Assembly (NCBI GenBank): GCA_934098485.1
Contig: CAKOOH010000005.1
Location: forward strand, 11,617-75,616
DNA: 64,000 nucleotides
Direction of reading: 5' to 3'
Origin: an uncultured Bacilli bacterium
GTDB taxonomy: Bacteria; Bacillota_I; Bacilli_A; RF39; UBA660
Part shown: one piece after another, positions 11,049 through 61,211 of the stretch
Layout: each line of letters begins with the position of its first letter
Position numbering within the stretch: the stretch's first letter is position 1
Made by a program: the position numbers and the translations under genes
Notes under the pieces: model-generated
Database searches by the model: none
Told to the model about the DNA's origin: nothing
What the model saw: the letters and a program-made list of their open reading frames with translations, nothing else

Positions 11049-11076
11049 ACACTTAAATGTGATAAAATTTAAGTGT
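11049..11076. promoter_or_regulatory. Perfect 10-bp inverted repeat ACACTTAAAT-n8-ATTTAAGTGT overlapping a TGTGATAAAAT -10-like element, a candidate AbiEi autorepressor operator
   Basis: Palindrome read directly, 16 nt upstream of the AbiEi start. Confidence 0.4.
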
Positions 11077-11091
11077 GAAAGGAAAAACGAT

Positions 11092-11679: not shown

Positions 11680-12527
11680 TTAAAAATAGGGATAGTTTAA
11701 AAGCAAGAACGTCTAATTTAGCTAATAAAACTAATATTCCTAATAAATATTTAATTCAAAGCTTTATGTTTGAAGCTTTATTAAAAAGAATATCAATTTC
11801 TAAATATAAAGATAAATTTATAATTAAAGGTGGCCTCTTATTATCATCTATCTTTGGTGTAAACTTAAGAAGTACTATGGATTTAGATACCACTATAAAA
11901 GGATTATCACTGGATAGAGAAACCATTATTAAAGTTATTAATGATATTATTAGCATTGAAATAGACGATAATATCAAAATTGAAATAGAAAATATTAAAG
12001 ATATTAGAGAAGAAGAATTATATTCGGGTTTTAATGTCAATTTAAAAGCCGAATTCGATGGTTTGAAAACTAATTTAATGATTGATATAACTACAGGAGA
12101 TGTTATTACTTATAAAGAAGTTGAGTTTAAATATAATACCTTATTTGATAATGAAATCATCAATATTATGACTTATAATTTTGAAACTATACTAGCAGAA
12201 AAATTTGAAACAATAATTAGCAGAAATATAGATAATACTAGAATGAAAGATTATTATGATTTATATATGTTTGTTAATTTAAAATGGGATGATATTAATA
12301 AGGATACTTTAAGAAAAGCAATTATAAACACCGCTAAAAATCGTAAAACTTTAGATTACATAGATAATGCTAGTAAATATATAGAATTAATTAGTGATGA
12401 CTCAAGATTAAAATCTCTTTGGAATAGTTATAAAAGTAATTATGATTATGCAAAAAATATAGAGTTTGAAGATACAATATATGCTATTAAAACAATTGGC
12501 AAAATTGTTACATCAGTCGGAATTTAA
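11676..12527 (+). CDS. abiEii: AbiEii/AbiGii-family nucleotidyltransferase toxin (DUF1814)
   Basis: FIIKGGLLLSSIFGVNLRSTMDLDTT matches the GG...R.T.DLD nucleotidyltransferase signature of AbiEii. It is translationally coupled to AbiEi. Confidence 0.75.
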   Translation: MIKNRDSLKARTSNLANKTNIPNKYLIQSFMFEALLKRISISKYKDKFIIKGGLLLSSIFGVNLRSTMDLDTTIKGLSLDRETIIKVINDIISIEIDDNIKIEIENIKDIREEELYSGFNVNLKAEFDGLKTNLMIDITTGDVITYKEVEFKYNTLFDNEIINIMTYNFETILAEKFETIISRNIDNTRMKDYYDLYMFVNLKWDDINKDTLRKAIINTAKNRKTLDYIDNASKYIELISDDSRLKSLWNSYKSNYDYAKNIEFEDTIYAIKTIGKIVTSVGI

Positions 12528-12774: not shown

Positions 12775-13587
12775 ATGGAAGAAATAACCTATAATAAAGT
12801 TGAAGATGAAAAAAGCCCCAAAATAAAACAGTTATATTGGGATATTGCCTTTGGTCTTCAAGACGTAGATGGATTAAAGCCATCTAAATATATGATTGAA
12901 TTATCAAAAGAACATATAAATGGGCAAAAAACGTATCATGAGGTTAAAGAAGAAATTACCTCTTATTATAAGATAAATTATGATAATCATGCTGACGATG
13001 ATGAAGAAGAAGCTGATGAAGTTTCTATCGCAATATACCAAATACTTAATAATAAATCTTTTAGATTTGATTATTTAACTTTAAAAAATTATCATCAAAG
13101 ATTATTTTGTAACTTAAATAAAGAAAAATATAATCCGGGCGTTTTTAGATTGTATAACATAACTAAAGACGAGCCAATTTTAAATGGTGATACAGTAAAC
13201 TATCAATCTTATGATATGATTGAAGAAACTTTAAAATATGATTTTAATGAAGAAGCGGCTCAAAATTATCTTGAGTTTACTGAAGAACAATTAATAAATC
13301 GTATTTGTGAGTTTACATCTAGAATATGGCAAGTACATCCTTTTCAAGAGGGTAATACAAGAACTACAGCTATTTTTATTCAAAAATATTTAAATAGCAT
13401 TGGATTTAAAGTAAACAACGAATTATTTAAAGATAATTCCCAATATTTTAGAAATGCTTTAGTAAGAGCAAATTACACAAATTATAGTAAAGGCATAAGT
13501 GCTGATACCAAATTCCTAAAAATGTTTTTTGAAAATTTATTATTATATAAAAATAATGAATTAAATAATGATGATTTAAAAATATAA
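12775..13587 (+). CDS. Fic/Doc-family protein with a degenerate active-site motif (HPFQEGNTRTT instead of HxFx(D/E)GNGRxxR)
   Basis: The Fic core motif is recognisable but with G-to-T and a missing second Arg. An extended -10 TGGTATAAT and the ribosome-binding site AAAGGAGG lie upstream. Confidence 0.65.
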   Translation: MEEITYNKVEDEKSPKIKQLYWDIAFGLQDVDGLKPSKYMIELSKEHINGQKTYHEVKEEITSYYKINYDNHADDDEEEADEVSIAIYQILNNKSFRFDYLTLKNYHQRLFCNLNKEKYNPGVFRLYNITKDEPILNGDTVNYQSYDMIEETLKYDFNEEAAQNYLEFTEEQLINRICEFTSRIWQVHPFQEGNTRTTAIFIQKYLNSIGFKVNNELFKDNSQYFRNALVRANYTNYSKGISADTKFLKMFFENLLLYKNNELNNDDLKI

Positions 13588-16893: not shown

Positions 16894-17559
16894 ATGAAAA
16901 GAATCTTAATTATTGAAGATGATAAAAAACTTGCTAATGAATTAAAATACCTATTAAACACTCACGGTTATGATGCTGATAAAATAGAAAGCTTTACCGG
17001 AAATATCGTAGATGACATTATCGCTTCTAGATCCGATTTAATCTTACTTGATATAAATCTTCCTTTCGAAAGTGGCGAAACCATCTTAAAAAACTTACGC
17101 AAAACATCTAATACACCCGTAATTATGCTAACTAGTAAAGTAGGGGAAATAGATGAAGTCTTATCCCTTAGTTATGGAGCCGATGATTATATTACTAAAC
17201 CGTATAACCCCACCATTTTACTTTTACATATCGAGGCCATTTTAAAAAGAACCATGCCTAAACAAGATATCATTAACTATAAAGGCGTGACAATAAACCT
17301 AAATAAAAGTTCCCTTACTGATGGCATCAAAGAAATACCTCTAACTAAAAGTGAAATGATTATCTTTAAATATTTACTAGATAATCAAAACAAAATTGTT
17401 TCAAGAGATGCTTTAATGACCGCCCTTTGGGATAATGACGACTATATAAATGATAATGCTTTAACTGTAAATATCAGTAGGCTAAGAGGCAAACTAGAAG
17501 CATTTCACATCGAAAAAAATTTAGAAACTAGAAAAGGGCAAGGTTACATCTTATTATGA
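16894..17559 (+). CDS. OmpR-family response regulator (BceR-like)
   Basis: Receiver Asp pocket (IIEDD, LILLDINLP) and a C-terminal winged helix. It overlaps the kinase gene by ATGA. Confidence 0.9.
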   Translation: MKRILIIEDDKKLANELKYLLNTHGYDADKIESFTGNIVDDIIASRSDLILLDINLPFESGETILKNLRKTSNTPVIMLTSKVGEIDEVLSLSYGADDYITKPYNPTILLLHIEAILKRTMPKQDIINYKGVTINLNKSSLTDGIKEIPLTKSEMIIFKYLLDNQNKIVSRDALMTALWDNDDYINDNALTVNISRLRGKLEAFHIEKNLETRKGQGYILL

Positions 17560-18566
17560 AAGCATCTTTATATTTAAAAGATAAAATTATTGAAATATTT
17601 ATCTTTCTTCTAACCATTATTATCATAACCCTTTTCTTTGTCGCCTATAAAATGCCAGTATCTTTAATAATTATTACTCTTATTATTATAAATGTTTTAT
17701 TTATCACTTGCTTTATGATAGACTATCAAAAAAAGAAAACCTTTTATAACTTTTATCTACTTACTTTAAATAGATTAGATCAAAAATATCTAATTTTAGA
17801 AACTCTCACTAAGCCATCTTTTTATGAAGGCCAAATTTTATATGACAGTTTATATGAAATAAATAAATCTATGCTAGAAAAAATAAATGCCTATAAAGAA
17901 AATGTTAATGACTTTAAAGAATACATTGAAACATGGATTCATGAAGTAAAAATTCCTATTGCCTCAATGGAACTAATGCACTTTAATCACCAAGATAAAT
18001 TAAGTAAATCCCTAAAAGAGGAAATTGATCGCCTTGATGATTATACTGAAAAAGTTCTTTATTATGTCCGCAGTGAAAACGCTGAAAAAGACTATCTTAT
18101 CAAAAAAGTAAACCTAAATAAAATAATTCATAACGTACTAATCAAAAATAAAAATATTCTTTTAGAAAATAAGATCGATGTCATAACCGATAATAAAAGC
18201 ACTTTCGTTTTTAGTGATGCCAAATGGTTAGAATTTATTATTAATCAAATTTTAAGTAACAGCGTTAAATATCATAGTAAAGAAAACCCTTATATTAAAA
18301 TAAGTATTACCAAAGAAGATAATTTAGTTTTTTTAAATATATATGATAATGGGATAGGTATTAGTAAAAAAGACTTACCTCGCGTATTTGAAAAAACTTT
18401 TACCGGAACAAATGGTCATCAAAATAGTAAATCTACCGGTATGGGACTTTATATTGTTAAAAATTTAATAAACAAACTCGGTCATCAAATAACTATTTCA
18501 TCTAAAGAAAAAGAATATACTAAAGTAACCATAACTTTTGCTTTAAATGATTATTATCATCTCTAA
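17556..18566 (+). CDS. Intramembrane-sensing histidine kinase (BceS-like)
   Basis: Two N-terminal TM helices with a minimal extracellular loop. The H-box HEVKIPIASMEL and an ATPase G-box (YDNGIGI, TGMGLYI) are present. Confidence 0.85.
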   Translation: MKASLYLKDKIIEIFIFLLTIIIITLFFVAYKMPVSLIIITLIIINVLFITCFMIDYQKKKTFYNFYLLTLNRLDQKYLILETLTKPSFYEGQILYDSLYEINKSMLEKINAYKENVNDFKEYIETWIHEVKIPIASMELMHFNHQDKLSKSLKEEIDRLDDYTEKVLYYVRSENAEKDYLIKKVNLNKIIHNVLIKNKNILLENKIDVITDNKSTFVFSDAKWLEFIINQILSNSVKYHSKENPYIKISITKEDNLVFLNIYDNGIGISKKDLPRVFEKTFTGTNGHQNSKSTGMGLYIVKNLINKLGHQITISSKEKEYTKVTITFALNDYYHL

Positions 18567-18584
18567 TATTACAAAATTGTAATA
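18567..18584. promoter_or_regulatory. Perfect 8-2-8 palindrome TATTACAA-aa-TTGTAATA overlapping a TATAAT -10 (18583-18588), a candidate response-regulator operator for the ABC transporter operon
   Basis: Read directly. It sits immediately after the kinase stop and 70 nt upstream of the ABC ATPase start. Confidence 0.4.
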
Positions 18585-18655
18585 TAATTGTAAGATTAAA
18601 ATAGCGACAAAATCGCGTTTTTTTTATAAACTATTCTGGTAAGGAGAGAAAAATT

Positions 18656-19423
18656 ATGGAAAATATATTAAAAGTTGAAAAAGTCGAAAAATACTACGGG
18701 AATAAGTCAAGTCTTACAAAAGCTATTGACAATATTTCTTTTGCAGTTAAACCCCAAGAATTCATTGCCATAATGGGCGCCAGTGGTTCGGGAAAAACAA
18801 CTCTTTTAAATTTAATCTCCACGATAGATAAAGTAACTACTGGCCATATCTATGTTGATGGAGAAGACATCACGACCTTAAAAGGCAACAAACTAAATGC
18901 CTTTCGCCGTGAAAAATTAGGTTTTATCTTTCAAGATTTTAATTTGTTAGATACTTTAACGGGATATGAAAATATTGCTCTTGCTTTATCAATTTTAAAT
19001 GTTCCTCATAAAGAAATTGCCAAAAGAATTGAAGATATAGCGGAGAAACTAAACATCACAAAAATACTAAATAAATATCCATATCAAATGAGCGGTGGCG
19101 AAAAACAAAGAATTGCTTCTGCTAGAGCCATTATAACTAACCCCAAATTAGTTTTAGCCGATGAACCAACCGGAGCCCTAGACTCTAAGTCATCTAAAGC
19201 TTTATTAGAAAGTTTTGAATATTTAAATGAAACTTTAGCATCTACAATTATTATGGTAACTCATGATGCATTTACTGCTAGTTACGCTTCCAGAGTAATC
19301 TTTATTAAAGACGGCAAAATATTTAACGAATTAATTAAAGGAGACGCTACTAGAAAAGAATTCTTTAATAGTATCATTGATGTCGTTACTCTTCTAGGAG
19401 GGGATTTAAATGATGCTTTGTAA
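18656..19423 (+). CDS. ABC transporter ATP-binding protein (BceA-like)
   Basis: Walker A GASGSGKTTLLN, ABC signature LSGGEKQRIASARA and Walker B LVLADEPTGALD. Confidence 0.9.
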   Translation: MENILKVEKVEKYYGNKSSLTKAIDNISFAVKPQEFIAIMGASGSGKTTLLNLISTIDKVTTGHIYVDGEDITTLKGNKLNAFRREKLGFIFQDFNLLDTLTGYENIALALSILNVPHKEIAKRIEDIAEKLNITKILNKYPYQMSGGEKQRIASARAIITNPKLVLADEPTGALDSKSSKALLESFEYLNETLASTIIMVTHDAFTASYASRVIFIKDGKIFNELIKGDATRKEFFNSIIDVVTLLGGDLNDAL

Positions 19424-21401
19424 GTTATCAATAAATAACCTAAAAAAGAGTTTTAAAGATTACGCTATTTATTTCTTTACTTTAATCTTAGGTGTTTGTA
19501 TATTTTATATATTTAATTCCTTAGATAGTCAAACCGCGATGCTTAAAGTATCATCTTCAACTAGAGAAATTATTGTTTTATTAATAAAAGCCTTATCCGG
19601 TGTATCCGTATTTGTCTCTTTAGTTTTAGGCTTTTTAATCATTTACGCATCTAGATTTTTAATTAAAAAAAGAAAAAAAGAGTTTGGCGTCTATCTAACC
19701 TTAGGAATGAGCAAACGCAAAATATCTTTAATGCTTTTCCTAGAAACCTTACTGATTGGTATTATATCTTTAGTAATTGGACTACTACTAGGAACTTTTA
19801 TATCCCAAATAACCAGTGTATTTATCGCTAATATGTTTGAAGCTAATTTAACTAATTATACCTTTACATTCTCAAAAAGTGCCGCTTTAAAAACTATTAT
19901 GTATTTTGGCGTTATCTACTTAGTTGTCATTATTTTTAACACGGTAATTATTAATAAATGTAAGCTAATTGACTTGTTATCATCAAATCGTAAAACCGAA
20001 AAAGTAAAAATTAAAAATCCTCGTGTCTGTGTAAGCCTGTGTCTTCTTTCTATGATTATTTTGGGAGTTGCTTACTATATGGTAACTGGTGGCATAAATA
20101 AACTAATGGATTATGATGCATCAATTCTTTTACTACCTATATTTCTAGGCGGCCTCGGAACCTTTTTATTCTTCTTTTCGGTATCTGGCTTATTTTTAAA
20201 TATCTTTAGCAAATTTAAATCTCTATACTATAAAGAATTAAATGCTTTTACCTTTAAACAAATAAGCAGTAAAATTAATACCATGGTAGTATCTATATCT
20301 GTAATATGTATTTTATTGTTTATGACTATCTGCATATTATCAAGTGCTTTTTCCATTAAGAATTATTTAAATGATTCTATAAACAAATATGCCCCAGCAG
20401 ATTTCGAATATGAATATTTTGCAAATGACATAGAAGATATTAATAAATTATATGAAGAAAATGGCGTTTTAAAATATTTTAAGAATTATGTTGTCATAGA
20501 TAATTACACTTTTGAAGATTTTACTTATGAAAAACTATTTGATAAATATTATGATGAAATTTTTGCTAAATATGGCATACTAAATGTTACCTCATCTGTA
20601 GAAATGATTAAATTATCTGATTATAATAAACTTGCGGGTATTTATCACTTTACCAAAGAAAGTCTAAAAGATAATGAATTCTTAATTTCTTGTAACTTTA
20701 AAGAAGAAACTTATAATTACTTATTAAGCAAAACTAAAGAATTTAAAATTCTTAATCAAACTCTAATCAGCAAAAGTGATAATGTCATAGATAGTTTTAT
20801 ATATATGGGTGCTAATCCTACTAATGGCGGTTTTCTAATTGTTCCTGATCATGTTTTAGAAAAGGCTAAACCAACCTATAAAGTATTAGTAGGGAATTTT
20901 ATCACCCAAGATAGTGAAGAACAAAGAAATTTAATTACTAAAATTAATCGCCTTCATTATCAAGATTCTTTTTCTGTTAATACTAAAAATGATATTAAAG
21001 ATTCATCAAATGGTTTATCTGTTATGGTAACTTTTATTGGTTTATATCTAGGTATTATATTTCTAATTTCATCATCCGCTATCTTAGCCTTAAAGGCCTT
21101 ATCCGATGCCATTGATGATAAAGGTAAGTATCTTATTTTAAGAAATATTGGTGCCGATGAAAAAGATATCAATAAATCTTTATTTAAACAAACTTTAATA
21201 TTTTTTATGGTACCGCTTTCTCTTGCTATAATTCATACCATTTTTGGTATTAAATTTTGTATGATTATTTTAAATTCCATGGGTATTAATAATCTAATCA
21301 AACCAATATTTTTAACCTCACTATTTTTAATCTTTATTTATGGTAGTTATTTCTTTATTACATATTTATATAGTAAAAATTTAATTAAAACAAATCGTTA
21401 A
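19410..21401 (+). CDS. FtsX-like ABC permease with 10 TM helices and a large extracellular loop (BceB-like)
   Basis: 663 aa with a 4-TM + large loop + 6-TM hydrophobicity pattern. It overlaps the upstream ATPase gene. Confidence 0.85.
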   Translation: MMLCKLSINNLKKSFKDYAIYFFTLILGVCIFYIFNSLDSQTAMLKVSSSTREIIVLLIKALSGVSVFVSLVLGFLIIYASRFLIKKRKKEFGVYLTLGMSKRKISLMLFLETLLIGIISLVIGLLLGTFISQITSVFIANMFEANLTNYTFTFSKSAALKTIMYFGVIYLVVIIFNTVIINKCKLIDLLSSNRKTEKVKIKNPRVCVSLCLLSMIILGVAYYMVTGGINKLMDYDASILLLPIFLGGLGTFLFFFSVSGLFLNIFSKFKSLYYKELNAFTFKQISSKINTMVVSISVICILLFMTICILSSAFSIKNYLNDSINKYAPADFEYEYFANDIEDINKLYEENGVLKYFKNYVVIDNYTFEDFTYEKLFDKYYDEIFAKYGILNVTSSVEMIKLSDYNKLAGIYHFTKESLKDNEFLISCNFKEETYNYLLSKTKEFKILNQTLISKSDNVIDSFIYMGANPTNGGFLIVPDHVLEKAKPTYKVLVGNFITQDSEEQRNLITKINRLHYQDSFSVNTKNDIKDSSNGLSVMVTFIGLYLGIIFLISSSAILALKALSDAIDDKGKYLILRNIGADEKDINKSLFKQTLIFFMVPLSLAIIHTIFGIKFCMIILNSMGINNLIKPIFLTSLFLIFIYGSYFFITYLYSKNLIKTNR

Positions 21402-21465: not shown

Positions 21466-21494
21466 TTGACATGGGGTGGGGTTATTAGTACAAT
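21466..21494 (+). promoter_or_regulatory. Sigma-A type promoter TTGACA-17-TACAAT, module copy 1
   Basis: Consensus -35 with 17-bp spacing to the -10. It is followed by a ~30-nt leader with the ribosome-binding site GGGGTGA before the ATG at 21524. Confidence 0.6.
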
Positions 21495-21523: not shown

Positions 21524-23671
21524 ATGAGAAATTTTCTATATAAGAGAAAAATAATATATATAATTTTAATTGTAGTTGGGATTATTGCATTAACAGGAAC
21601 AACTTATGCGATATTTACAACAACGACCACTCAAGAAGGCACAAATACAATTAATACTTTAAAGTGCTTAGAACTAACATTTTCTAATCAAAGTGATGCG
21701 ATTAATTTAGATAATACATATCCTATGAGTGATGAAAGAGGAAAAAAGAATACACCTTATACATTTACTTTAACTAATAAATGTGGTGCATATGTGGAGT
21801 ATTCGCTAGGTCTAGCCATAAATACAAGTAATACTTTAGAAAATAAATATATAAAAACAATGTTTTCTTTAAAAAATGAAGATGGTGAAACAGTTCTTTT
21901 AACTGATAGATTAGAAGGAAAAGATTATGAAGGAAAGAAAACCTACATTCTTAAAAATGATGGCCTAGAAAATAATGCTAGTAAAGACTATAAACTAACA
22001 TTATGGATTGATGAGTCTTTAACTAATTCACAAATGAACTCAGATTTTAAAGGAAATATTATATTACAATTAAAGGCTACAAAATCACCTATTACAGTGG
22101 AATGTGATAAAGGGGATAACTCAGTAATTATAAATAAAGTTTCTTCTCAAAGTGAAGCCGTTTTTACTAAAAATTGTAAAGTTGTAGGAACCGCTAAGTA
22201 TGTTAGCAGTGATGAAGTACTTGTATATAAAGTGAAATTAGAAAACAGAAGTAATACTTATGAGGGGCTTGGTTTAAGTTATAGTCTAAGTAGTACCAAT
22301 ACATCAAATAATGGTAAAATTATGCCAAGTGTAAGTAAAGAGTATATTGGCACCGATGATGTTATATTAGGTAGTGGCATAATCGAAGGTGGAACTACGG
22401 TAGAACATGATTATAATTTAAAGATCTTTTTAAATAATATTGGAGTGCTTTCTAGTGATGTATTAAGTTCTGCATTTAAAGGACAAATAAAAATAGAATA
22501 TAGTACAGCACCTAAAGAACCAACAGGGTGGAGTGAAGCAAAAAGTGGAACCTTACTAGCCGGAATAAAAACTAATAATAATACATATACGCAGTTAATT
22601 ACTAGTCCTGGAAAAGAAACATCTTCTAGTAGTGAAGCCATCTTAGCCGCCGCACCCGATGATTATGGTATGAGTTATTATTATAGAGGAGCCGTAACCA
22701 ATAATTATGTAGAGTTTGCAAATAAATGCTGGAGGATTGTAAGAGTAACTGGAGATGGTTCAATCAAATTAGTTCTTCATAATGATAATGTAAATAATGT
22801 ATCTAGTCCATGTGCTGCATCAAATAATAGTAATACGGCTGCTTTTGCAAGATATAGTGGAACAACGTATACAACAGCATTTAATACAGCGGCAGATGAT
22901 AATACTTATGTTGGCTTTATGTATGGAGCAGCCGGATCAAGTACTTATGCTGCGACTCACGCAAATACCAATAAAAGTACGATTTTACAAAATTTAGAGA
23001 CTTGGTACAATAATAATTTAACTGCATACGAAAATAAACTAGCTGATACTATTTGGTGTAATGATAAAAGTACCCAAAAAAGTCAGTCTCTAATAACTAC
23101 TAGTTTAAATACTACCACAAATAAAATTACCAAAAGTACGTCTGCTTATCCCGGCTTAGGTTATGGAACTGATAAAACCCTATATAGTGGCCGCCAAAGA
23201 AGCAGAACAAATTACTATTTCACTAATTCCGCAAATCAGCAATATGGAACCGCCGGAACGGGACCAGATCTTATATGTCCAAATGACGATTTAGATGGCA
23301 ATTTATCAAAGTTTACCGCTTATGATACCATTAATGGTAATGGAGCCTTAGATAAAAAAATCGGCTTACTTACAACAGACGAAGTACTACTTGCTGGTAG
23401 TGTCGACTGGCATATATATGTAGCCCTTAATTATAAAATGGCAAGCATCACTAGTTACATAATAGAAAATACCAAAAATATAAAATACTGGACGTTATCC
23501 GCATATAATTTCGCAGATGAAGCAAATATTATTTATGTTGGAAGTGCTTACGCCCTTGGTAATGGTGTTGCCACCACTAGTCAAGGTTTAAGACCCGCAA
23601 TTTCTTTAAAAAGTGACACTACAATATCTAAAGGAACTGGTACTTCATCCAATCCATTTGTTATAAGTTAA
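21524..23671 (+). CDS. Secreted/surface protein with a SipW-cognate-type signal peptide and a TasA/camelysin-like N-domain (~190 aa), fused to a ~500-aa unassigned C-terminal region
   Basis: Signal anchor ...ALTGTTYAIFTTT parallels TasA ...LVGGGTWAAFND. The N-domain is paralogous (~65% identity) to the N-domain of the ORF at 58699. The track ORF starts at GTG 21476 inside the promoter; ATG 21524 with a ribosome-binding site is preferred. Confidence 0.6.
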   Translation: MRNFLYKRKIIYIILIVVGIIALTGTTYAIFTTTTTQEGTNTINTLKCLELTFSNQSDAINLDNTYPMSDERGKKNTPYTFTLTNKCGAYVEYSLGLAINTSNTLENKYIKTMFSLKNEDGETVLLTDRLEGKDYEGKKTYILKNDGLENNASKDYKLTLWIDESLTNSQMNSDFKGNIILQLKATKSPITVECDKGDNSVIINKVSSQSEAVFTKNCKVVGTAKYVSSDEVLVYKVKLENRSNTYEGLGLSYSLSSTNTSNNGKIMPSVSKEYIGTDDVILGSGIIEGGTTVEHDYNLKIFLNNIGVLSSDVLSSAFKGQIKIEYSTAPKEPTGWSEAKSGTLLAGIKTNNNTYTQLITSPGKETSSSSEAILAAAPDDYGMSYYYRGAVTNNYVEFANKCWRIVRVTGDGSIKLVLHNDNVNNVSSPCAASNNSNTAAFARYSGTTYTTAFNTAADDNTYVGFMYGAAGSSTYAATHANTNKSTILQNLETWYNNNLTAYENKLADTIWCNDKSTQKSQSLITTSLNTTTNKITKSTSAYPGLGYGTDKTLYSGRQRSRTNYYFTNSANQQYGTAGTGPDLICPNDDLDGNLSKFTAYDTINGNGALDKKIGLLTTDEVLLAGSVDWHIYVALNYKMASITSYIIENTKNIKYWTLSAYNFADEANIIYVGSAYALGNGVATTSQGLRPAISLKSDTTISKGTGTSSNPFVIS

Positions 23672-24386: not shown

Positions 24387-24968
24387 TTATAAACTTAAAA
24401 TATCTTCAGGAATTAAAATCTTTAAATAATTAATTAAATCTTCTTTGGTGTATTTGCCGGTTCCATTAATCCATTCAACTCCAATATTAATAACCCCGCC
24501 TAAATAAAATTTCGCAATAACTTCTCTAGGAATTTTTGTTTTAATATCATCAAGTTCTAATCTTTTTAAGACATCATTATTTACAACACTAAGTAAAATA
24601 TCCATCATAATACTATTTCTATTATTAACCATAATTGTATTATAAATATCTTTTTTATCTTCAATATGATCTAAAAATAAACTAATTAATTGAATGTAGT
24701 AATCTCTAATATTTAAATTTTTATTACTTTTTTCTAATTCTTTAACAAATTCTTCCTTTAAAAAATTCAAAAAATCTTGTAAAAGTTCATATTTATCTTG
24801 GTAATGAGCATAAAAAGTCGAGCGATTTATTAAAGCTTTAGTACAAATATCTGATACCTTAATCTCTTCAAACTCCTTTTCCTTCATTAATTCAATTAAA
24901 CTATTATATAAGACATTTTTAGTTTTAACCACCCTTAAATCAGTTTTTTCCTTCATAAACATCACCAA
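24387..24968 (-). CDS. TetR/AcrR-family transcriptional regulator
   Basis: N-terminal HTH (VSDICTKALINRSTFYAHYQDKYELL). It is divergent from the MMPL transporter gene. Confidence 0.8.
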   Translation of the reverse strand: MVMFMKEKTDLRVVKTKNVLYNSLIELMKEKEFEEIKVSDICTKALINRSTFYAHYQDKYELLQDFLNFLKEEFVKELEKSNKNLNIRDYYIQLISLFLDHIEDKKDIYNTIMVNNRNSIMMDILLSVVNNDVLKRLELDDIKTKIPREVIAKFYLGGVINIGVEWINGTGKYTKEDLINYLKILIPEDILSL

Positions 24969-25132
24969 GTAAATTATAAATCAAAAACCTACAAAAGAAA
25001 AGATAACTACTAAAATGTTGCTTATTATCAATACATAACTATAAAAGTGTTGGAAAACATACAAAAATAGAAATATATTTATTCACATTTCGCCTATAGA
25101 ATAATAGAATGTATAGCGAAGGAGAAATTTAT

Positions 25133-28100
25133 ATGAAAAAATTTGCTAAAAAAATATGCGAAAAGAAAAAGTTAATCATATTTATATCAGCCTGCTTATT
25201 AGTCTTATCTTTTATTGGTATGTCCTTAACTAGAGTAAATTATGATATTTTAGTGTACTTACCAGAAGATATTGAAACTATCAAAGGTCAAAATATCTTA
25301 ACTGAAGATTTCGATATGGGTTCTTATTCCATCGCGGTCATTGAAAACTCTAAAGGAAAAGATATCCTAAAATTAGAAGAAAGAATTAAAAAGGTTGAAG
25401 GAGTAAATAACGTTGTATCTTTATATGATGTAATTGGTACTAATATTGATATCAATATGTTGCCAAGTGAAATTAAAGATCATTTCCATGAAGAAAATAC
25501 CGACATGCTATTTATTACCTTTGCTGGTGGTACATCAAGTGAAGAAACTATTAATGCAGTTAAAGAAATTCGTACTCTTGATGACAATTTAAATCTTGGT
25601 GGGATGAGTTCCATGGTTCTCGATACCATGAATTTGTCTGAAAGTGAAATTACCATTTATATTATTATTGCGGTTGCTCTATGTACTTTAGTCTTAGAGT
25701 TATCCCTAGATTCATATGTAGCCCCTATATTACTTTTACTTAATATTGGTGCTGCTATCCTAGTAAACTTAGGAACAAATGTCTTTCTAGGCCAAATATC
25801 CTATATAACTAAAGCCTTAGTTGCTGTTTTACAATTAGGTGTTACTACTGATTTTTCTATTTTCTTATACCATTCATATGAAGATAAAAAGAAAAAATAT
25901 AAAGATAAAGAAGAAGCTATGTCCGAAGCCATTTCTGAAACATTTACATCTGTTATTGGTTCATCCCTAACAACTATTGCTGGCTTCCTAGTTCTATGCT
26001 TTATGCAGTTAACTTTAGGTAAAGATTTAGGCATCGTTATGGCTAAAGGTGTTTTACTAGGTTTAGTATCTGTTCTTACTTTATACCCTTGCTTAATTTT
26101 AACATTTGATAAATTTCTAGAAAAAACTAAACATAAGAGTTTATCATTAAACTTTAATAAACTAAACACCTTTGTTGTTAAACATCATGTCATTTTATTC
26201 TGCATCTTCTTAGTATTACTTGTTCCTATGTATCTATCTTACCGTAAATGTGAAGTTTACTATAAAATCGATAGATCCTTACCAGATACTTTAGAAAGTA
26301 TTAAAACTAATGAATACTTAAAAGATCATTACAATATCGTAAGTCCTGAAATTATTTTATTAGATGCTAAAGATAAACCTAATAAAGTAAACGCTTTAAC
26401 TGATGAACTTAGAAAAGTTGAAGGAGTCGATTTTGTATTATCATTTGATAAATTACAAGAATATGGCTTTACAGAAAATATGTTAAGTGAAGATATTCTA
26501 AAAATATTTAAAAATGATAAATATCAAATGATTTTAGTAAACTCATTATATGAAGTAGCATCTGATGAGCTAAATAATCAAATAACTATTGTAAATGATA
26601 TCGTTAAAAACTATGATGAAAATGCCATAGTAGCAGGTGAGGGGCCTTTAATGAAAGACCTAATAACTACTAGTAATACTGACTTTAATAACGTTAATAC
26701 TTATTCAATTGTCATTATCTTACTAATCTTATTATGTGTTCTTAAAAATGCTTTCTTGCCTATACTACTTATTGCCGCTATCGAATTTGCTATCTTTACT
26801 AATATGAGTATTTCTTACTATAGTGGTGCCGTTTTACCATTTGTTGCTCCAATTGTTCTTGGTACTATTCAGTTAGGTGCTACTATCGATTATGCTATCT
26901 TACTTACAACTACTTACAAAAATAATCGTAAAGAAACTAAAGACAAAAAAGAAGCGATGATTAAAACTTTAAATTATAATGGTGCATCTATTTTAACTAG
27001 TGGTTTATGCTTCTTTGCTGCTACCTTTGGAGTAGGGGTATATTCCGATATAGATATGGTTGGTTCTCTATGTACTTTAATTAGCCGTGGTGCTTTAATA
27101 AGTATGTTTATTGTTATCACTGTTTTACCAGGAATATTATTAATAAGTGATAAATTATTTATCAAAGAAGAAAGGAAAGATAATATGAAAAAAAATAATA
27201 AAAAATTAGCTGTATTAGCTCTTAGTGCTTTTATGCTAACTGCTAATGCCCTAAACGTTAATGCTTTAACAAAAGTAGAAACTGTTTATGGTAAATTAGA
27301 TTCCACAGGAAAAAGCAAATCTATTTATATAAATGAAAGACTTTTAAATAGTTCTAAATTAAATCAAATAAATGATTATACGGAACTTAAAAATATTTTA
27401 AATATTAATGGTGATGAAACTTACACTATTGATGGTAACAAAATAACTTGGGAAAGTAATGGAAACAATATTTTCTATCAAGGAACTTATGAAAAATCTT
27501 TACCTATAAATATCTCTATCTCATATAAATTAGATGGTAAAGACATTAAACTTGAAGATTTACTTGGTCAAAAAGGTAAAGTAGAAGTAACTATTAAATA
27601 TGTTAATAATGATAAACATACCGTTAAAATTAATGGTAAAAATGAAACTATGTATACACCATTTACTATTATGTTTGGTACTATTTTACCAAGTGATGCT
27701 GAAAATATCAGTGTAACAAATGGTAAAATAATTTCTACTGGTACTAAAAATGTTGTAGTTGCCTTAAGTGCGCCTGGCCTTTATGACAATTTAAAACTTG
27801 ATAATTTAAAAGACTTAAATAAAATTGTCTTATCTTATAATACTGATAACTTTGAGCTTCCATCAATGTACAATGTTGTTAGTCCTAAATTAATATCAAG
27901 TAGTGATATTAGTAAACTAAATGATTTAGATAAAATCTATAGTAAAGTTGATGAATTAAGTCAAAATATGGATTTAATAGATAACAGTACTAAAGAATTA
28001 AAAAATGGTTCTAATTCTTTAAAAAGTGCTTTATCTTCATCTATTAATACTTTAAAAAATGATAAAAGTAATGCTTTAAATGAAGCTGCTTTAAAAGGCA

Positions 28101-28963
28101 TTGTTGATGCTGCTGTAAGTGGTGTAAATGAAACATTCACTGATGAATATAAAAAAGCCATCGCTGATTCTGCTTGGGAAACTGTTAAAGCAAATTTAAA
28201 TGAAACAGATGAAAACTTACAAAATAGTATTTCTGAAACTGTTAAAAATAATTTAACGGCTGCTATTACTAAATATATTGAATTTAAACAAATTGATATT
28301 GTAAATGATACTAAAGTATGTTTAACTGCTACTAAAACTTTAGAAGCTTTAGGAAAAACTCCTGATGAAATGACTCCTGAAGAAAAACAAAGTTGTGCTA
28401 ATGTTAATGAAATAAATACCTTACAAAATATTTTAACTGAAAGTTATACTAGCACTGCTACAGAAGTAAGCTCTAAAGTAACTATGGGTGTTGCTGAAAA
28501 AGTATCTAAAAATGTTGCTGTATCTGCTAGTTATAATGCTGCTATAAATACCGCTAAAAGTGTATCTTCTAGTGTATCAACAAATGTTGCTAATAGTGTC
28601 AAAACTGCTGCAACTAATTCCTTTGCTACTTCTCTAAATACTTTATATGAAAACATTTCTTTAATTGATAATGGCTTAAATGAACTATCAAGTGGTGTTA
28701 CTAAATTTAATAATGAAGGAATTAAAACTATCGCCAGTCTAGTAAATAATGATGTCAAAGGATTATCTGAAAGACTAGAAAAAACTGCCTCTTTAGGAGA
28801 AAACTATAAATCTGTTATGAATCATAATAACTTAGATAAAGATAGTGAAACAAAATTTGTTTTAGTTGTTGATGGTGAAAAGAAAGAAGAAACTAAAAAC
28901 ACTACTGTTAAAGAAAATACTAAAACATCTCTATGGCAAAAAATCAAAAATATCTTCAAATAA
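25133..28963 (+). CDS. MMPL/RND-superfamily membrane transporter with a ~600-aa C-terminal extracellular extension
   Basis: Two 6-TM bundles separated by soluble loops (MMPL architecture) in residues ~1-690, then an Asn/Ser/Thr-rich non-membrane tail. The ATG at 25133 has the ribosome-binding site GAAGGAG. Confidence 0.75.
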   Translation: MKKFAKKICEKKKLIIFISACLLVLSFIGMSLTRVNYDILVYLPEDIETIKGQNILTEDFDMGSYSIAVIENSKGKDILKLEERIKKVEGVNNVVSLYDVIGTNIDINMLPSEIKDHFHEENTDMLFITFAGGTSSEETINAVKEIRTLDDNLNLGGMSSMVLDTMNLSESEITIYIIIAVALCTLVLELSLDSYVAPILLLLNIGAAILVNLGTNVFLGQISYITKALVAVLQLGVTTDFSIFLYHSYEDKKKKYKDKEEAMSEAISETFTSVIGSSLTTIAGFLVLCFMQLTLGKDLGIVMAKGVLLGLVSVLTLYPCLILTFDKFLEKTKHKSLSLNFNKLNTFVVKHHVILFCIFLVLLVPMYLSYRKCEVYYKIDRSLPDTLESIKTNEYLKDHYNIVSPEIILLDAKDKPNKVNALTDELRKVEGVDFVLSFDKLQEYGFTENMLSEDILKIFKNDKYQMILVNSLYEVASDELNNQITIVNDIVKNYDENAIVAGEGPLMKDLITTSNTDFNNVNTYSIVIILLILLCVLKNAFLPILLIAAIEFAIFTNMSISYYSGAVLPFVAPIVLGTIQLGATIDYAILLTTTYKNNRKETKDKKEAMIKTLNYNGASILTSGLCFFAATFGVGVYSDIDMVGSLCTLISRGALISMFIVITVLPGILLISDKLFIKEERKDNMKKNNKKLAVLALSAFMLTANALNVNALTKVETVYGKLDSTGKSKSIYINERLLNSSKLNQINDYTELKNILNINGDETYTIDGNKITWESNGNNIFYQGTYEKSLPINISISYKLDGKDIKLEDLLGQKGKVEVTIKYVNNDKHTVKINGKNETMYTPFTIMFGTILPSDAENISVTNGKIISTGTKNVVVALSAPGLYDNLKLDNLKDLNKIVLSYNTDNFELPSMYNVVSPKLISSSDISKLNDLDKIYSKVDELSQNMDLIDNSTKELKNGSNSLKSALSSSINTLKNDKSNALNEAALKGIVDAAVSGVNETFTDEYKKAIADSAWETVKANLNETDENLQNSISETVKNNLTAAITKYIEFKQIDIVNDTKVCLTATKTLEALGKTPDEMTPEEKQSCANVNEINTLQNILTESYTSTATEVSSKVTMGVAEKVSKNVAVSASYNAAINTAKSVSSSVSTNVANSVKTAATNSFATSLNTLYENISLIDNGLNELSSGVTKFNNEGIKTIASLVNNDVKGLSERLEKTASLGENYKSVMNHNNLDKDSETKFVLVVDGEKKEETKNTTVKENTKTSLWQKIKNIFK

Positions 28964-56988: not shown

Positions 56989-57018
56989 TTGACGTGTGGG
57001 GTGGGTTATTAGTATAAT
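56989..57018 (+). promoter_or_regulatory. Sigma-A type promoter TTGACG-18-TATAAT, module copy 2
   Basis: Homologous to 21466-21494. The shared leader GAAAATATCGGG(G/A)GTGA follows. Confidence 0.6.
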
Positions 57019-57047: not shown

Positions 57048-58673
57048 ATGCATATGAATATAGTCAGTGACAAAATTGGTACGTTTTTAAACTATGTTAA
57101 AAAGGATAAGAAGCTTTTGCTTGTGTTAATAATTACTATTTTAGTTTTACTTTCTTTAATATTAAACATTGCTTTTAGTTTTCTTTTACAAAAGACCGAA
57201 AAACCTAGTACAAATATTACTGTCGGCGATTTAAAATATAGTATGGTAATTAACAATGTTAATTTAAATTCTTCGGTAGGAACAAAACTACCGACTAACA
57301 CAATCATTGGTGATCGAATAATAGTGTTAAAAAGTAAAAAAACCGAGCAGTTTAATATTGTATTAACATCAAATAACGATAAAAGCACTTATTATGAAAT
57401 AATTTATCATGTTTGTTCCGATGAAAACTGTACTAGTTTTATCGATACTCCCGAAACAATTCAAATCGCGTACCATGTTGATTCACTTTCTCCCATTACC
57501 GATTTAATCGCATCTAATGAATCAAGAACAATCACCATTGTAACTGATAATCAATCTACTCAAGATTATTACGTAGAAGTGGATTTAAATGTTGGATATA
57601 AACATAATAAATTAGTCCTTCAAAAACAGATAACTAATAAATTTACGCCGCCATATTTAAGTGGTAACTTAGATATAATTGCGACCGTTAATGGGGAAGA
57701 AATAGATGGATTTCCTACGGAGCCAGATTATGAAACAAATTTTGTCTGCAAAGAAAATGATGGTACTATTTCTAAGGCCAAAGGTATTTTTAGATACACA
57801 GCCGCTAATGGTTGGGAATTTGATGTTTATGGTCTAACTAGAAATCATACAACTTGTTATATTTCATTTACAAGTACAGAGTATGTAGTAACTTATGAAC
57901 TATTATCAACTAGACTAGATTGTGCTAATATTACGGCTAAACCAGACGAACCGATAATTACCTATACTGGAAACTGTGATATAACTTCAGAAACCGAAAA
58001 AACTGATGGAAGTCACAGATGGAAATTAAAATTTACCACAAGTGGCACTCTTTCTATAAGAGGCCAAATGTTTGTTGATGCATTCCTAGTAGGTGGCGGC
58101 CAAGGAGGAGCCAAAAAAGGAGTTGGTGGTGATGGTGGAAAAACAATTAGATATAATACCGTTAGACTTGCTAATGATGATACTTACACTGTAACAATTG
58201 GTGCCGGAGGCGCTGGTGGTGTAGAAGGTAGCACGAATGGTAAATTAGGAAGCCCTAGCACATTGATTTCCAGGACTTCAGCCGAAAACTTTTCTTTAAC
58301 TTCCGCAAATGGTTATGATACTAACGCTGGCGGTGCTGGTGGGTCAGACGATGATGCTAGTAATAATAAACCAGGGCAGTGCCGTACAGACAAATACTCA
58401 GCTGAATTTCACGATCCAACTTCTGGTATTTATTATGCCGGTGGCGGTGGTGGAAGTGGTGGCCAAAAAAGCTGGTACTCTAGCGGTCAATATTGGTATA
58501 GGGACATTGCTGGCGGTTCATCATGCGGTGATGGTGCTAGTGCCGGAAGTAGTGATGGGGAAAATCCTGCCGATCCAGCCGAAGATAATACCGGTGCTGG
58601 TGGCGGTGGCGGTCGTTTTGCTGGAGGTACTGGTGGTAGTGGAATTATTATAATTCGTGATACTAGAGCGTAA
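57048..58673 (+). CDS. Membrane-anchored protein with a C-terminal ALK/LTK-type glycine-rich domain (PF12810-like)
   Basis: N-terminal TM. The C-terminal 280 aa carry GGG-rich blocks (VGGGQGGAKKGVGGDGG, AGGGGGSGGQ, GAGGGGGRFAGGTGGSG) interspersed with a WEFDVYG start, as in glycine-rich domains. Confidence 0.6.
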   Translation: MHMNIVSDKIGTFLNYVKKDKKLLLVLIITILVLLSLILNIAFSFLLQKTEKPSTNITVGDLKYSMVINNVNLNSSVGTKLPTNTIIGDRIIVLKSKKTEQFNIVLTSNNDKSTYYEIIYHVCSDENCTSFIDTPETIQIAYHVDSLSPITDLIASNESRTITIVTDNQSTQDYYVEVDLNVGYKHNKLVLQKQITNKFTPPYLSGNLDIIATVNGEEIDGFPTEPDYETNFVCKENDGTISKAKGIFRYTAANGWEFDVYGLTRNHTTCYISFTSTEYVVTYELLSTRLDCANITAKPDEPIITYTGNCDITSETEKTDGSHRWKLKFTTSGTLSIRGQMFVDAFLVGGGQGGAKKGVGGDGGKTIRYNTVRLANDDTYTVTIGAGGAGGVEGSTNGKLGSPSTLISRTSAENFSLTSANGYDTNAGGAGGSDDDASNNKPGQCRTDKYSAEFHDPTSGIYYAGGGGGSGGQKSWYSSGQYWYRDIAGGSSCGDGASAGSSDGENPADPAEDNTGAGGGGGRFAGGTGGSGIIIIRDTRA

Positions 58674-58698
58674 ATAAAAAACATTGGGTGATTTTAAT

Positions 58699-60990
58699 AT
58701 GAGAAATTTTCCATATAAAAGAAAAATAATATATATAGTTTTAATTATCATGGGAATTATTACATTAACTGGTACAACCTATGCGATATTTACAACAACA
58801 ACTACGCAAGAAGGAACAAATACAATTAATCTTTTAAAGTGCTTAGAATTAGAGTTTTCTAATCAAAAAAATATTATCAATTTAACAAATACCTATCCTA
58901 TGCGTGATGAAAGAGGAAGTAAAAATCCTCCATATACATTTACTTTAACAAATAAATGTGGAATATATTTAGAATATTCAATCGGATTAGCGGTAAACAA
59001 AAATAACACCTTAGAAGACAAATATGTTAAAACAATTTTTTCCCTTTCAAATAATGATGGTGAACCTGTTTTATTAACAGACAGACAAGAAGGAAACACT
59101 TATAATGATAGAAAAACATATATTTTTAGAAATGATGGTTTAGAAAACGGGGAGAGCAAGGATTACAAATTAGTATTGTGGCTAGATGGAACTGCCAGTG
59201 ACTCTGAGATGCAAAAAAGTTTCACTGGTAATATAATAATTAATACAAAGCCAATTAAAAATGAAGATCAAAAAACAATAACTGTCGATTTAAATGGTGG
59301 AAATTTATTACAAGAATTAAACGAAGTATATAGAGAAGGAATGAAAATAAAATTACCCGTGCCAGCCAAAGCCGGATATCATTTTGATAAATGGGAAATA
59401 ACTGCGGGCGATGCTACCATTGATAAAAATAACTATTTAACTATTGGCAAAGAGAATATCACTTTAAAAGCCTATTATGCCGGTGGTGTAACTCTTACAT
59501 TAGAATTAAATGGTGGAAATACTACACAAACCTTTAAAGAGGATTATGGTCAAGGTGAAACAATAACGTTAATAGAACCAACAAAAGAAGGCTATTTATT
59601 TGGCGGTTGGAAAATCATAAGTGGAAATGGAATAATAAATGGTAGCACCTTAACAATGAATACCGAAAGTGTCGTAATAGAGGCAATTTGGAAAAAACAA
59701 GTAACTTTAACAGTAGAACTTAATGGTGGGAGAACTACGCAATCTTTTAAAGATGAATACTTTGAAGGCGATAAGATAACTCTAAATGAACCAACAAAAG
59801 AAGGTTATTTATTTGGTGGTTGGAAAATCACCAGCGGTGATGGAATAATAAATGGAAATATATTAACAATAAGTGCAGAAAACATAAAACTAGAAGCAAC
59901 TTGGAAAAAACGAGTAACTTTAACTGTCGATTTAAACGGTGGCATTACTACTCAAAATTTTAAATCAGCATATGGTGAAAAAGATGAAATTACCTTAACC
60001 ATTCCCACAAGATCGAATATTGCATTTATCGGTTGGGAGATAGTATCTGGGGATGCTACAATAAATAATAATAAACTAATCTTTGGATCAAACGATGTAA
60101 GCATTAGAGCCTTATGGCGAGAAACATGGACTTTTGACTTTACGGGTTCGGAGCAAACATTTACTGTGCCATATAGAGGCGTGTATAAACTAGAAATATG
60201 GGGAGCGCAAGGTGGAAGTGTTTCTTATTCAGGAACCTATAATGGTGGTTATGGGGGATATTCAAATGGTAGTATTAATTTAACTAAGAACGAAGTACTA
60301 TATATTAATGTAGGCGGTTCTGGAAGTGGTGGAGTAGCAACATCTTCATATTCCGGAGGATATAATGGTGGTGGCTCTACTAATGAAACTAGGGGCACAG
60401 ATCATTATCATGCATCAGGTGGTGGCGCTACGCATATTGCCAATGTTTCTGGAATATTATCATCTCTATCATCAAAAACTAGTAATATTTTAATTGTTGC
60501 TGGCGCTGGCGGTGGCGGCTACCGACATACTGAATCAGAAAAATATTCTAGTATAGGCGGTTCTGGTGGTGGCATACAAGGCACTGATTCAACTACCAAT
60601 GGTAGTAATGGTAAACAAGGATTAGGTGGATATCAAACCGCTGGTGGGAAATATGAAGGTGGCAGTGGTTCTAGCAGTATTTTTGGAAGTTTTGGCCAAG
60701 GTGGAACGCCAGGTAACTCTTGGGGCTCTGCTGGTGGCGGCGGCTTTTATGGCGGTGGTGCATCTAATGGCGATGTTGGATCAAGCGGTAATAGCGGTGG
60801 TGGCGGTGGCTCTGGTTATATTGGAAATTCGCTTCTTTCAGATAAAGTAATGTATTGTTATAATTGTACATCATCATCTGAAAATGCCACAAAAACCATA
60901 TCAACTACATGTACGAATTCATCAGCCACAGAAAACTGTACAAAACAAGGTAACGGCTATGCAAGAATAACATTTATAAATTTATCATAA
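58699..60990 (+). CDS. Secreted/surface protein: SipW-cognate-type signal + TasA-like N-domain + Flg_new (Listeria-Bacteroides) repeats + ALK/LTK-type glycine-rich domain + Cys-containing tail
   Basis: N-terminus MRNFPYKRKIIYIVLIIMGIITLTGTTYAIFTTTTTQEG. Repeated LNGG.TTQ.F...GE.ITL.EPTKEGYLFGGWKI.SG Flg_new units from about 59278 to 60120. Glycine-rich-domain blocks follow: WTFDFTG...YINVGGSGSGG...HASGGGATHI...IVAGAGGGGY...GSAGGGGFYGGGASNG...NSGGGGGSGYIGNS. Confidence 0.7.
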   Translation: MRNFPYKRKIIYIVLIIMGIITLTGTTYAIFTTTTTQEGTNTINLLKCLELEFSNQKNIINLTNTYPMRDERGSKNPPYTFTLTNKCGIYLEYSIGLAVNKNNTLEDKYVKTIFSLSNNDGEPVLLTDRQEGNTYNDRKTYIFRNDGLENGESKDYKLVLWLDGTASDSEMQKSFTGNIIINTKPIKNEDQKTITVDLNGGNLLQELNEVYREGMKIKLPVPAKAGYHFDKWEITAGDATIDKNNYLTIGKENITLKAYYAGGVTLTLELNGGNTTQTFKEDYGQGETITLIEPTKEGYLFGGWKIISGNGIINGSTLTMNTESVVIEAIWKKQVTLTVELNGGRTTQSFKDEYFEGDKITLNEPTKEGYLFGGWKITSGDGIINGNILTISAENIKLEATWKKRVTLTVDLNGGITTQNFKSAYGEKDEITLTIPTRSNIAFIGWEIVSGDATINNNKLIFGSNDVSIRALWRETWTFDFTGSEQTFTVPYRGVYKLEIWGAQGGSVSYSGTYNGGYGGYSNGSINLTKNEVLYINVGGSGSGGVATSSYSGGYNGGGSTNETRGTDHYHASGGGATHIANVSGILSSLSSKTSNILIVAGAGGGGYRHTESEKYSSIGGSGGGIQGTDSTTNGSNGKQGLGGYQTAGGKYEGGSGSSSIFGSFGQGGTPGNSWGSAGGGGFYGGGASNGDVGSSGNSGGGGGSGYIGNSLLSDKVMYCYNCTSSSENATKTISTTCTNSSATENCTKQGNGYARITFINLS

Positions 60991-61002
60991 AAATACCCAT
61001 GA

Positions 61003-61045
61003 AAAGACAAAAAGATTTATGCGTATAATTTGTATAAATCTTTTT
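61003..61045 (+). terminator. Rho-independent terminator (AAAAAGATTTAT-n13-ATAAATCTTTTTT)
   Basis: Read directly after the stop at 60990. Confidence 0.55.
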
Positions 61046-61094
61046 TATAATATGAAATCGATAAAAAATGATATATATTATCGGTATATAATAG

Positions 61095-61168
61095 TTGCTT
61101 AAATTTGAAAATAGTCTAAAATTTAAGCAAGATTTAAGCAAGATTTAAGCAAGATAAATTGCTTAAAT
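61095..61168. repeat. Operator-like array: TTGCTTAAAT ... three tandem (G)ATTTAAGCAA units ... TTGCTTAAAT, upstream of the Fic gene
   Basis: Three direct 11-bp repeats flanked by their inverted copies. A -10 GATATAAT follows at about 61181-61188. Confidence 0.8.
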
Positions 61169-61211
61169 CCCATTTTTACGATATAATAAATAATAATGAA
61201 GGTGATTTACT

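Follow-up and report, generated by a model that had tools for sequence, protein, structure and literature searches.

A TasA-like cleavage motif heads a large, unannotated family of modular proteins from uncultured gut Bacilli

The characterised members of the TasA superfamily are single-domain subunits of 100-350 amino acids (aa) that form filaments, including the archaeal proteins AbpA (bundling pili, PDB 7UEG), AbpX, CanA, and Tafi. TasA itself belongs to the jelly-roll fold class (PMC9245690) and contains a donor strand at residues 28-38 (PMC9674648). Because of the aromatic residue at position P2' of its signal-peptide cleavage site, it is a poor substrate of LepB, a signal peptidase of the P type, and needs the endoplasmic reticulum (ER)-type peptidase SipW (PMC10269814). 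For accessory proteins of the TapA/AbpB type, the distal domains have been proposed to act as anchors or adhesins (PMC9245690; PMC9674648). We compare with these systems the products of two genes, here called A and B, which are encoded on a stretch of 64,000 nucleotides (nt) from an uncultured Bacilli bacterium (contig CAKOOH010000005.1, positions 11,617 to 75,616), referred to as the window in the following. Their common N-terminal module defines a large, unannotated family, which is found mainly in poorly known gut Bacilli and whose signal is TasA-like at the motif level. The resemblance to TasA is limited to the cleavage motif of the signal peptide and the general fold class. The closest known kind to which the family may be assigned are the SipW/TasA-type exported jelly-roll proteins, unless the hydrophobic N-termini are kept as uncleaved membrane anchors.

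The window consists of DNA with a low guanine-plus-cytosine (GC) content of ~28%, and both genes are located on its forward strand. Their features are listed below, including those taken from an AlphaFold2 (AF2) model with its predicted local distance difference test (pLDDT) value.

21466..21494, + strand: promoter-like site of gene A, TTGACA-17-TACAAT, 11/12 matches, overlapping an alternative GTG at 21476
21524..23671, + strand: gene A, 715 aa, with a signal peptide or anchor, a conserved N-domain, a middle region, and a large C-terminal module
21524..21610, + strand: A residues 1-29, with n-region MRNFLYKRK, h-region of 15 residues and c-region GTTYA; putative signal peptide (cleavage after T-Y-A) or uncleaved anchor
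21611..21667, + strand: A residues 30-48, conserved and poorly modelled, I-F-T4-Q-x3-N-x-I-x-T-x-C; candidate donor or interaction strand, a presumed role
21668..22093, + strand: A residues 49-190, nine-stranded jelly-roll-type beta-sandwich, core of the N-domain (AF2 model, pLDDT 85)
22094..22558, + strand: A residues 191-345, beta-rich middle region without a Pfam match
22559..23668, + strand: A residues 346-715, C-terminal passenger module (DDYGxSYYYRG...CWRIVR...GDGS...RPAISLK) with a DUF6273-like end
58699..60990, + strand: gene B, 763 aa, with the N-terminal module, Flg_new-type repeats, and a glycine-rich domain
58699-59268, + strand: B residues 1-190, N-terminal module paralogous to that of A
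about residues 200-478 of B, + strand: four Flg_new/Flg_new_2 repeats (Pfam)
60175-60978, + strand: B residues 493-760, ALK_LTK_GRD glycine-rich domain (E = 7e-34)

The ATG at 21524 is the likely start codon of A, since the alternative GTG at 21476 falls within the promoter-like site (21466-21494); the Shine-Dalgarno-like sequence GGGGTG is found upstream of this ATG. A BLASTP comparison of A with B yields E = 3e-75, and the likeness is limited to about the first 190 residues, across which the identity amounts to 70.5% for the proteins and 73.5% for the nucleotide sequences. A first-pass annotation of the stretch had already described A and B as open reading frames (ORFs) with a common N-terminus of ~190 aa, at a slightly lower estimate of ~65% identity, and the strings which it quoted (LTGTTYAIFTTTTTQEGTNTIN and YTFTLTNKCG) are indeed found in both. 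The full divergence it reported past the shared region is borne out by BLASTP and a Pfam scan, and Pfam also recovers the Flg_new repeats and the glycine-rich domain which it assigned to B. As judged from these data, A and B are supported as paralogs with a common N-terminal module and unrelated C-terminal cargo. No third copy of the module was detected in the window by tblastn, and a potential internal second copy within A (residues ~234-330) was dropped because of its insignificant independent E-value of 0.54. The C-terminal module of A has no relative in the PDB according to sequence searches, and its DUF6273-like stretch (residues 601-697, nt 23324-23614; E = 2.3e-4) scores 21.5 bits, below the cutoff of 23.5. 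The stretch containing gene A recurs with conserved gene order on a contig from a Hadza human-gut metagenome, which codes for an identical protein A.

The AF2 model of the N-terminal module, which was built with a 46-sequence alignment, shows a helix at residues 2-31, a segment of low confidence at residues 31-42 (pLDDT < 50), and the nine strands of the beta-sandwich at residues 49-185. Invariant residues of the N-domain are C48, P67, P78, N85, C87, and W161, and Y28, Q37, and N41 are nearly invariant. The N-termini of 155 family representatives follow the pattern G-x-[ST]-[YF]-[AS]-x-[WFY]-x2-T-x2-Q-x3-N-x-[IVL]-x-[TS]-x-C. The motif positions are conserved at frequencies of 80% (G), 100% ([ST]), 99% ([YF]), 99% ([AS]), and 94% ([WFY]), and the further positions at 97% (Q), 99% (N), and 100% (C); in both A and B, the motif reads G-T-T-Y-A-I-F. 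Across the representatives, the n-region carries a net charge of +3, the last charged residue is separated from the conserved glycine by a median of 16 residues (13-18 for the 5th-95th percentile), the putative -1 alanine is located at residue 27 (median), and positions -3 and -1 are occupied by small residues. In its geometry, the N-terminus thus corresponds to a Gram-positive Sec signal peptide of the cleavable type. The best explanation for the module of A and B is a Sec-type signal peptide, followed by a strand of ~18 residues studded with invariant positions and a jelly-roll domain with two invariant cysteines; the signal may be removed by cleavage or kept as a membrane anchor. Neither A nor B nor the partner protein encoded next to B (see below) contains an LPXTG-like motif near the C-terminus, a C-terminal hydrophobic run, or a cysteine within the first 35 residues which might belong to a lipobox, and the number of cysteines is even in each of the three. 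Lipoprotein and sortase anchoring were therefore rejected, and a cleaved protein would need other means of attachment.

In a set of 119 TasA/CalY sequences, the corresponding context is GGT[FWY]A↓xF (the arrow indicates the cleavage site), with an h-region of 16 residues and the -1 alanine at residue 27, which are the same median values as in the A/B family. The family motif agrees with this cleavage context at all five constrained positions (G-x-[ST]-aromatic-A↓x-aromatic), including the aromatic P2' residue that is typical of SipW substrates. This likeness in motif and geometry is real and conserved throughout the family. Further common traits are a conserved strand after the putative cleavage site and a domain of the jelly-roll class. 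Unlike TasA/CalY, the members of the A/B family lack the F-[ST/N]-D and LKPGD signatures and contain two invariant cysteines and a Q-x3-N motif, neither of which is present in TasA. Moreover, the sipW-tapA-tasA operon context is absent from the window.

The N-terminal 190 residues are not covered by any model in Pfam (2025) or NCBIfam 20.0. A word-index homologue search with a single sequence returned only seven matches, hinting at a rare family, but this was overturned when 1.84 billion cluster representatives were searched exhaustively with a HMMER profile, which retrieved 5,383 matches at E <= 1e-3, with 3,050 of them reaching E <= 1e-10. For the best 150 of these matches, as listed, the position of the domain is always at or near the N-terminus and never internal, in proteins of 168-1129 aa. 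None of the 135 relatives with precomputed annotation carries a Pfam domain on the region of the module, and all of them are named 'hypothetical protein'. Weak Pfam matches among 46 relatives are all far below threshold and concern DUF2140 (8/46, best value 4e-4), Fimbrial (3/46), and Pilin_N (2/46). The genomes that carry the module, represented here by 36 related loci (cited by L numbers), are mostly those of uncultured gut Bacilli, with record labels such as uncultured Bacilli, Tenericutes, Mycoplasma sp. CAG:956, Erysipelotrichaceae, and Ca. Faecenecus. At least five family paralogs are encoded in the Hadza metagenome-assembled genome CAKOOC01. Members of the family were also observed on contigs filed as Phocaeicola vulgatus or Muribaculaceae (L015, L028, L030, L031), which have GC contents of 25-31% and are probably mis-binned Bacilli contigs, because these values are far below those of Bacteroidales.

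The architectures of the 155 representatives show that the module is combined with very different partners. Stand-alone members of ~190 aa account for 45 of them, and tandem copies of such members occur in three of the related loci (L006, L025, L032). The C-terminal module of A is found in 27 of the 155 proteins, another unassigned module in 26, leucine-rich repeats (LRR) of the DUF285 type in 20, glycine-rich cargo in seven, and a module in common with the C-terminal region of the relative P0018 in six. These counts show the module to be a widely used 'base' at the N-terminus, to which very diverse cargo is attached. The first-pass annotation had regarded the fusion to a passenger as unusual, and this holds in comparison with the single-domain subunits of the characterised TasA superfamily; within the A/B family, however, fusion to cargo is the rule, as it applies to about 70% of the representatives. 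In terms of architecture, the proteins are also similar to the TapA/AbpB accessory proteins, which likewise consist of a signal peptide, a conserved N-terminal strand, a beta domain, and distal domains, whereas the macroglobulin-like beta-sandwich of TapA differs from the jelly-roll of the A/B family.

Gene B is located directly behind another gene for a glycine-rich protein, here called the partner gene, and the pair is arranged as follows.

56989..57018, + strand: promoter-like site ahead of the partner gene, TTGACG-18-TATAAT, 11/12 matches
57048..58673, + strand: partner gene, 541 aa, with a hydrophobic N-terminus of 25 residues, a beta-rich region, and a Gly_rich_2 domain
61142..61169, + strand: terminator-like hairpin after B

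The stop codon of the partner gene and the start of B are 25 nt apart, and the two genes probably form one operon, since a single strong promoter-like site precedes the pair and a terminator-like hairpin ends it. Homologs of the partner are also encoded directly upstream of B-like genes in L002, L010, L012, and L013. Its Gly_rich_2 domain (PF21722) comprises residues 332-537 (E = 4e-16), its hydrophobic segment consists of 25 uninterrupted residues without a polar c-region, and its N-domain aligns weakly with the family profile (hhalign, 53%). We infer from these sequence features that the partner is a membrane-anchored distant paralog; that it tethers or cooperates with B, which is itself glycine-rich, is speculation. 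The GC content rises to 34-35% at window positions 58000-62000, compared to about 28% elsewhere; the reason is not a foreign origin but the glycine domains of B and the partner, whose codons are GGN-rich. In the contexts of the homologues matched first, paralogs and partners of the 541-aa type were the only recurrent neighbours, and no recurrent enzyme or secretion genes were seen around them. Surface proteins of Mollicutes and Firmicutes with DUF285/BspA-like LRR, Flg_new, or glycine-rich domains (PF12810, PF21722) have their cargo domains in common with B, the partner, and many relatives, but these models describe the cargo alone, and none of them covers the N-terminal module.

A and B are very probably exported modular surface proteins, and the best overall explanation, to which we assign a probability of roughly 45%, combines export, processing by a SipW-type peptidase, and display of the cargo through the N-terminal module. 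According to this proposal, A and B would be exported by the Sec system, and a SipW-like peptidase of the ER/archaeal type, with its gene located elsewhere in the genome, would cut their signals after S/T-Y-A. The freed N-terminal strand and the jelly-roll domain would then bind to like modules, either stand-alone or fused paralogs, or to a membrane-anchored partner, in a manner known from the donor-strand-based assemblies of the TasA superfamily, and the cargo would thereby be displayed. The variable C-terminal parts would serve as binding or adhesive cargo, namely the DUF6273-like module in A and the Flg_new repeats plus glycine-rich domain in B. The individual parts of this proposal differ in their likelihood. 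The chances that the signal is cleaved by a SipW-type enzyme appear about even, whereas assembly by donor strands, which is proposed by analogy, is rather doubtful. The latter idea derives from residues 31-42 being conserved yet unplaced in the monomer model, like the donor strand of TasA. Possibly, A and B represent a divergent branch of the TasA superfamily.

Several results weigh against this explanation. Even at E <= 10, the SipW-signal model TIGR04088 (cutoff 19 bits) matches neither A nor B in their first 55 residues, with the N-terminus of TasA scoring 41.3 bits as a positive control, and PF12389 (Peptidase_M73; gathering threshold 22.5 bits) misses A, B, and 46 of 46 family N-domains at E <= 10. 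When the family profile (A2) is aligned by hhalign with a TasA/CalY profile from a separate homologue search (A4), the motifs come to lie in register and a probability of 68% is obtained for 78 columns (E = 4.7e-5), but this value falls to 6% without the n- and h-regions and to 0.8% if the motif is omitted as well. The match therefore comes mostly from the signal-peptide region, and homology of the mature domains is unproven. Sequence searches of the PDB with both family profiles and a distant relative yielded nothing relevant. Foldseek searches with the AF2 model against the PDB gave generic jelly-roll and beta-sandwich matches with template modelling (TM) scores of 0.39 or less, among them the PA14-type insert of a beta-glucosidase, CBM27, an alginate-binding carbohydrate-binding module (CBM), viral capsids, and TNF-like domains. 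AbpA, one of the archaeal TasA-superfamily filaments, is the second-best PDB match, which speaks for a kinship, but the TM score is only 0.32-0.34, and TasA itself does not appear among the best 50 structures. Furthermore, AF2 extends residues 2-31 as a single continuous helix, which suits an uncleaved anchor too, and a signal peptidase is encoded nearby in only one of the 36 related loci and not in the window. The curated models, which had been named in the first-pass annotation as ways of checking its proposals, thus turned out negative for A and B, and the structural comparison, likewise named there, gave the weak matches just described. What stands of its SipW-cognate-type signal are the motif and the geometry, which are conserved throughout the family, but not a match to TIGR04088; what stands of its TasA/camelysin-like N-domain is the jelly-roll fold class, but neither the PF12389 assignment nor a demonstrated homology of the mature domain.

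Among more distant relatives, the scores come closer to the curated models, with 8.1 bits for P0007 and 16.7 bits for a protein of L036 in the case of TIGR04088 and 18.4 and 14.2 bits in the case of PF12389, all of them below the respective thresholds. Three proteins of ~545 aa (L034 3205-4842, L036 3279-4910, and L036 16458-18056) were observed to have N-termini intermediate between the A/B family and camelysin/TasA (GISYAYFT / GGITYAFFT ... NIKPSN ... KTFTLTG.NTT), and match the family profile at about 4e-7. These proteins could form a bridge between the two groups.

The first-pass annotation noted no SipW-type signal peptidase in the window, and none was seen here either: no window ORF of at least 80 aa contains a [GSAT]SM.P box, and the 23 window ORFs compared with Pfam, which do not comprise every ORF of the window, gave no match to the S24/S26 families. 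The only signal-peptidase-like ORF in the 492 kb made up by the window and the 36 related loci is located in L028, where it codes for an archaeal-type signal peptidase I of 192 aa (TIGR02228, 89 bits; SipW model, 73 bits) at a distance of 1.4 kb from a family member, an arrangement that resembles TasA/CalY. The respective cluster (L028 2397-5018) consists of the peptidase, a stand-alone family member of 201 aa, and, between these two, a weakly camelysin-like protein of 241 aa and a protein of 197 aa on the opposite strand, and all three candidate substrates show [ST][YF]Ax[FYW] after the hydrophobic segment. A metagenome scan with the L028 peptidase returned six distant loci, two of them of high GC content, and no family members.

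The strongest competing explanation, which we consider less probable but well conceivable, is that the signal is not cleaved at all and that A and B are type II membrane proteins, with the jelly-roll as a membrane-proximal stalk for sortase-independent display; the likeness to the TasA motif would then be convergent and might reflect, for instance, a belt of aromatic residues where the protein leaves the membrane. This is a simple reading, and it agrees with the continuous helix across the motif, with the 27-residue hydrophobic run (residues 10-36), and with the failure of the curated SipW-signal and TasA models. It would also explain how the adhesin-like cargo (DUF285 LRR, Flg_new), which is expected to be cell-bound, stays attached in proteins offering no LPXTG, lipobox, or C-terminal transmembrane segment as alternative anchor, and it is in keeping with the lack of a visible signal peptidase in the window and in all but one of the 36 related loci. 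However, the distance between the last charged residue and the glycine is short and tightly distributed (13-18 residues) and is followed by a polar-small c-region, which amounts to a cleavable geometry, and the near-absolute conservation at positions -3, -2, -1, and +2 is poorly explained by an anchor. Members without any cargo (45/155, including tandem pairs) would make little sense as stalks. In addition, the partner demonstrates what a plain anchor looks like in this organism, with its 25 unbroken hydrophobic residues and no such c-region.

If the signal is cleaved, the enzyme might also be a general P-type signal peptidase I acting on an ordinary Sec signal, and the N-domain might be a CBM/PA14-like ligand binder which neither polymerises nor shares any kinship with TasA. 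The -3 S/T and -1 A residues conform to the general (-3,-1) rule, the PA14-type insert, CBM27, and the alginate-binding CBM are among the top structural matches, and homology to TasA in the mature domain is not demonstrable by hhalign. We nevertheless regard this combination as improbable, because the structural matches are all weak and P-type peptidases are disfavoured by an aromatic residue at P2', which is W/F/Y in 94% of the representatives (PMC10269814). Ordinary signal peptides, moreover, do not keep a five-position motif across thousands of divergent proteins, and a mobile CBM would not be confined to the position directly after the signal, as is the case for the 150 best hits. Even more remote is a relationship to type IV pilins or pseudopilins, in which the N-terminal helix is kept after cleavage by a prepilin peptidase. 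The lollipop shape of the model, with a beta domain at the end of a long N-terminal helix, and the weak matches of two relatives to archaeal Pilin_N and of three to Fimbrial might be taken as hints in this direction. Yet A, B, and the family consensus show no class III motif (G-F/M-T-L-x-E or G/A-F-T-L-x-E) ahead of the hydrophobic stretch, N_methyl (PF07963) is not matched, and the conserved residues follow the hydrophobic segment instead of preceding it. The pilin reading was rejected for lack of the class III motif, which is present in a genuine, lone type IV pilin or pseudopilin gene of the window (52384-52905, + strand; MKNKKGFTLVELL..., N_methyl E = 1.5e-8). Genes for pilus assembly were not noticed beside it.

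The uncultured small-genome Bacilli concerned are abundant in human and animal guts, and their cell surfaces are essentially uncharacterised. Since the N-terminal module heads thousands of predicted surface proteins, defining it would annotate a large block of dark matter and provide a handle on how adhesins are displayed in the absence of LPXTG and lipobox signals. Should the TasA-type motif be functional, subunits carrying cargo would join the range of SipW-dependent secretion and possibly that of donor-strand fibres. The most far-reaching version of the SipW-type explanation would be a new and very large TasA-superfamily clade of uncultured gut Bacilli, whose SipW-processed members of 190 aa and cargo-carrying subunits co-assemble by donor-strand exchange into 'decorated' fibres with anchored proteins of the partner type as base. 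We consider this version unlikely; the superfamily members mentioned at the outset form filaments, whereas the A/B family is known here from sequences and a predicted model. If true, it would represent a sortase-independent modular system of adhesin display. An anchor with a stalk, on the other hand, would mean that these surface proteins form a new family held by their N-termini, which is useful to know but mechanistically ordinary.

The genes surrounding A are not obviously tied to it, and A has its own promoter-like site. Upstream of A (16894-21401, + strand), genes for a response regulator, a histidine kinase, and an ABC ATPase/FtsX permease are arranged in the layout of bacitracin-type sensing and efflux systems. 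The region downstream of A (24387-28963) codes for a DUF308 membrane protein, a divergently transcribed TetR gene, and an MMPL transporter of 1,284 aa. Elsewhere in the window, an AbiEi/AbiEii type IV toxin-antitoxin pair (11059-12527, + strand) is followed by a Fic/DOC protein (12775-13587, + strand), and a second, Fic-like ORF, assigned by eye, is present just past B (61212-62210, + strand). Finally, an ORF of 663 aa with a TTG start and no Pfam match (446-2437, + strand) contains repetitive units of ~60 aa and a C-terminal transmembrane segment, and may represent another uncharacterised envelope protein.

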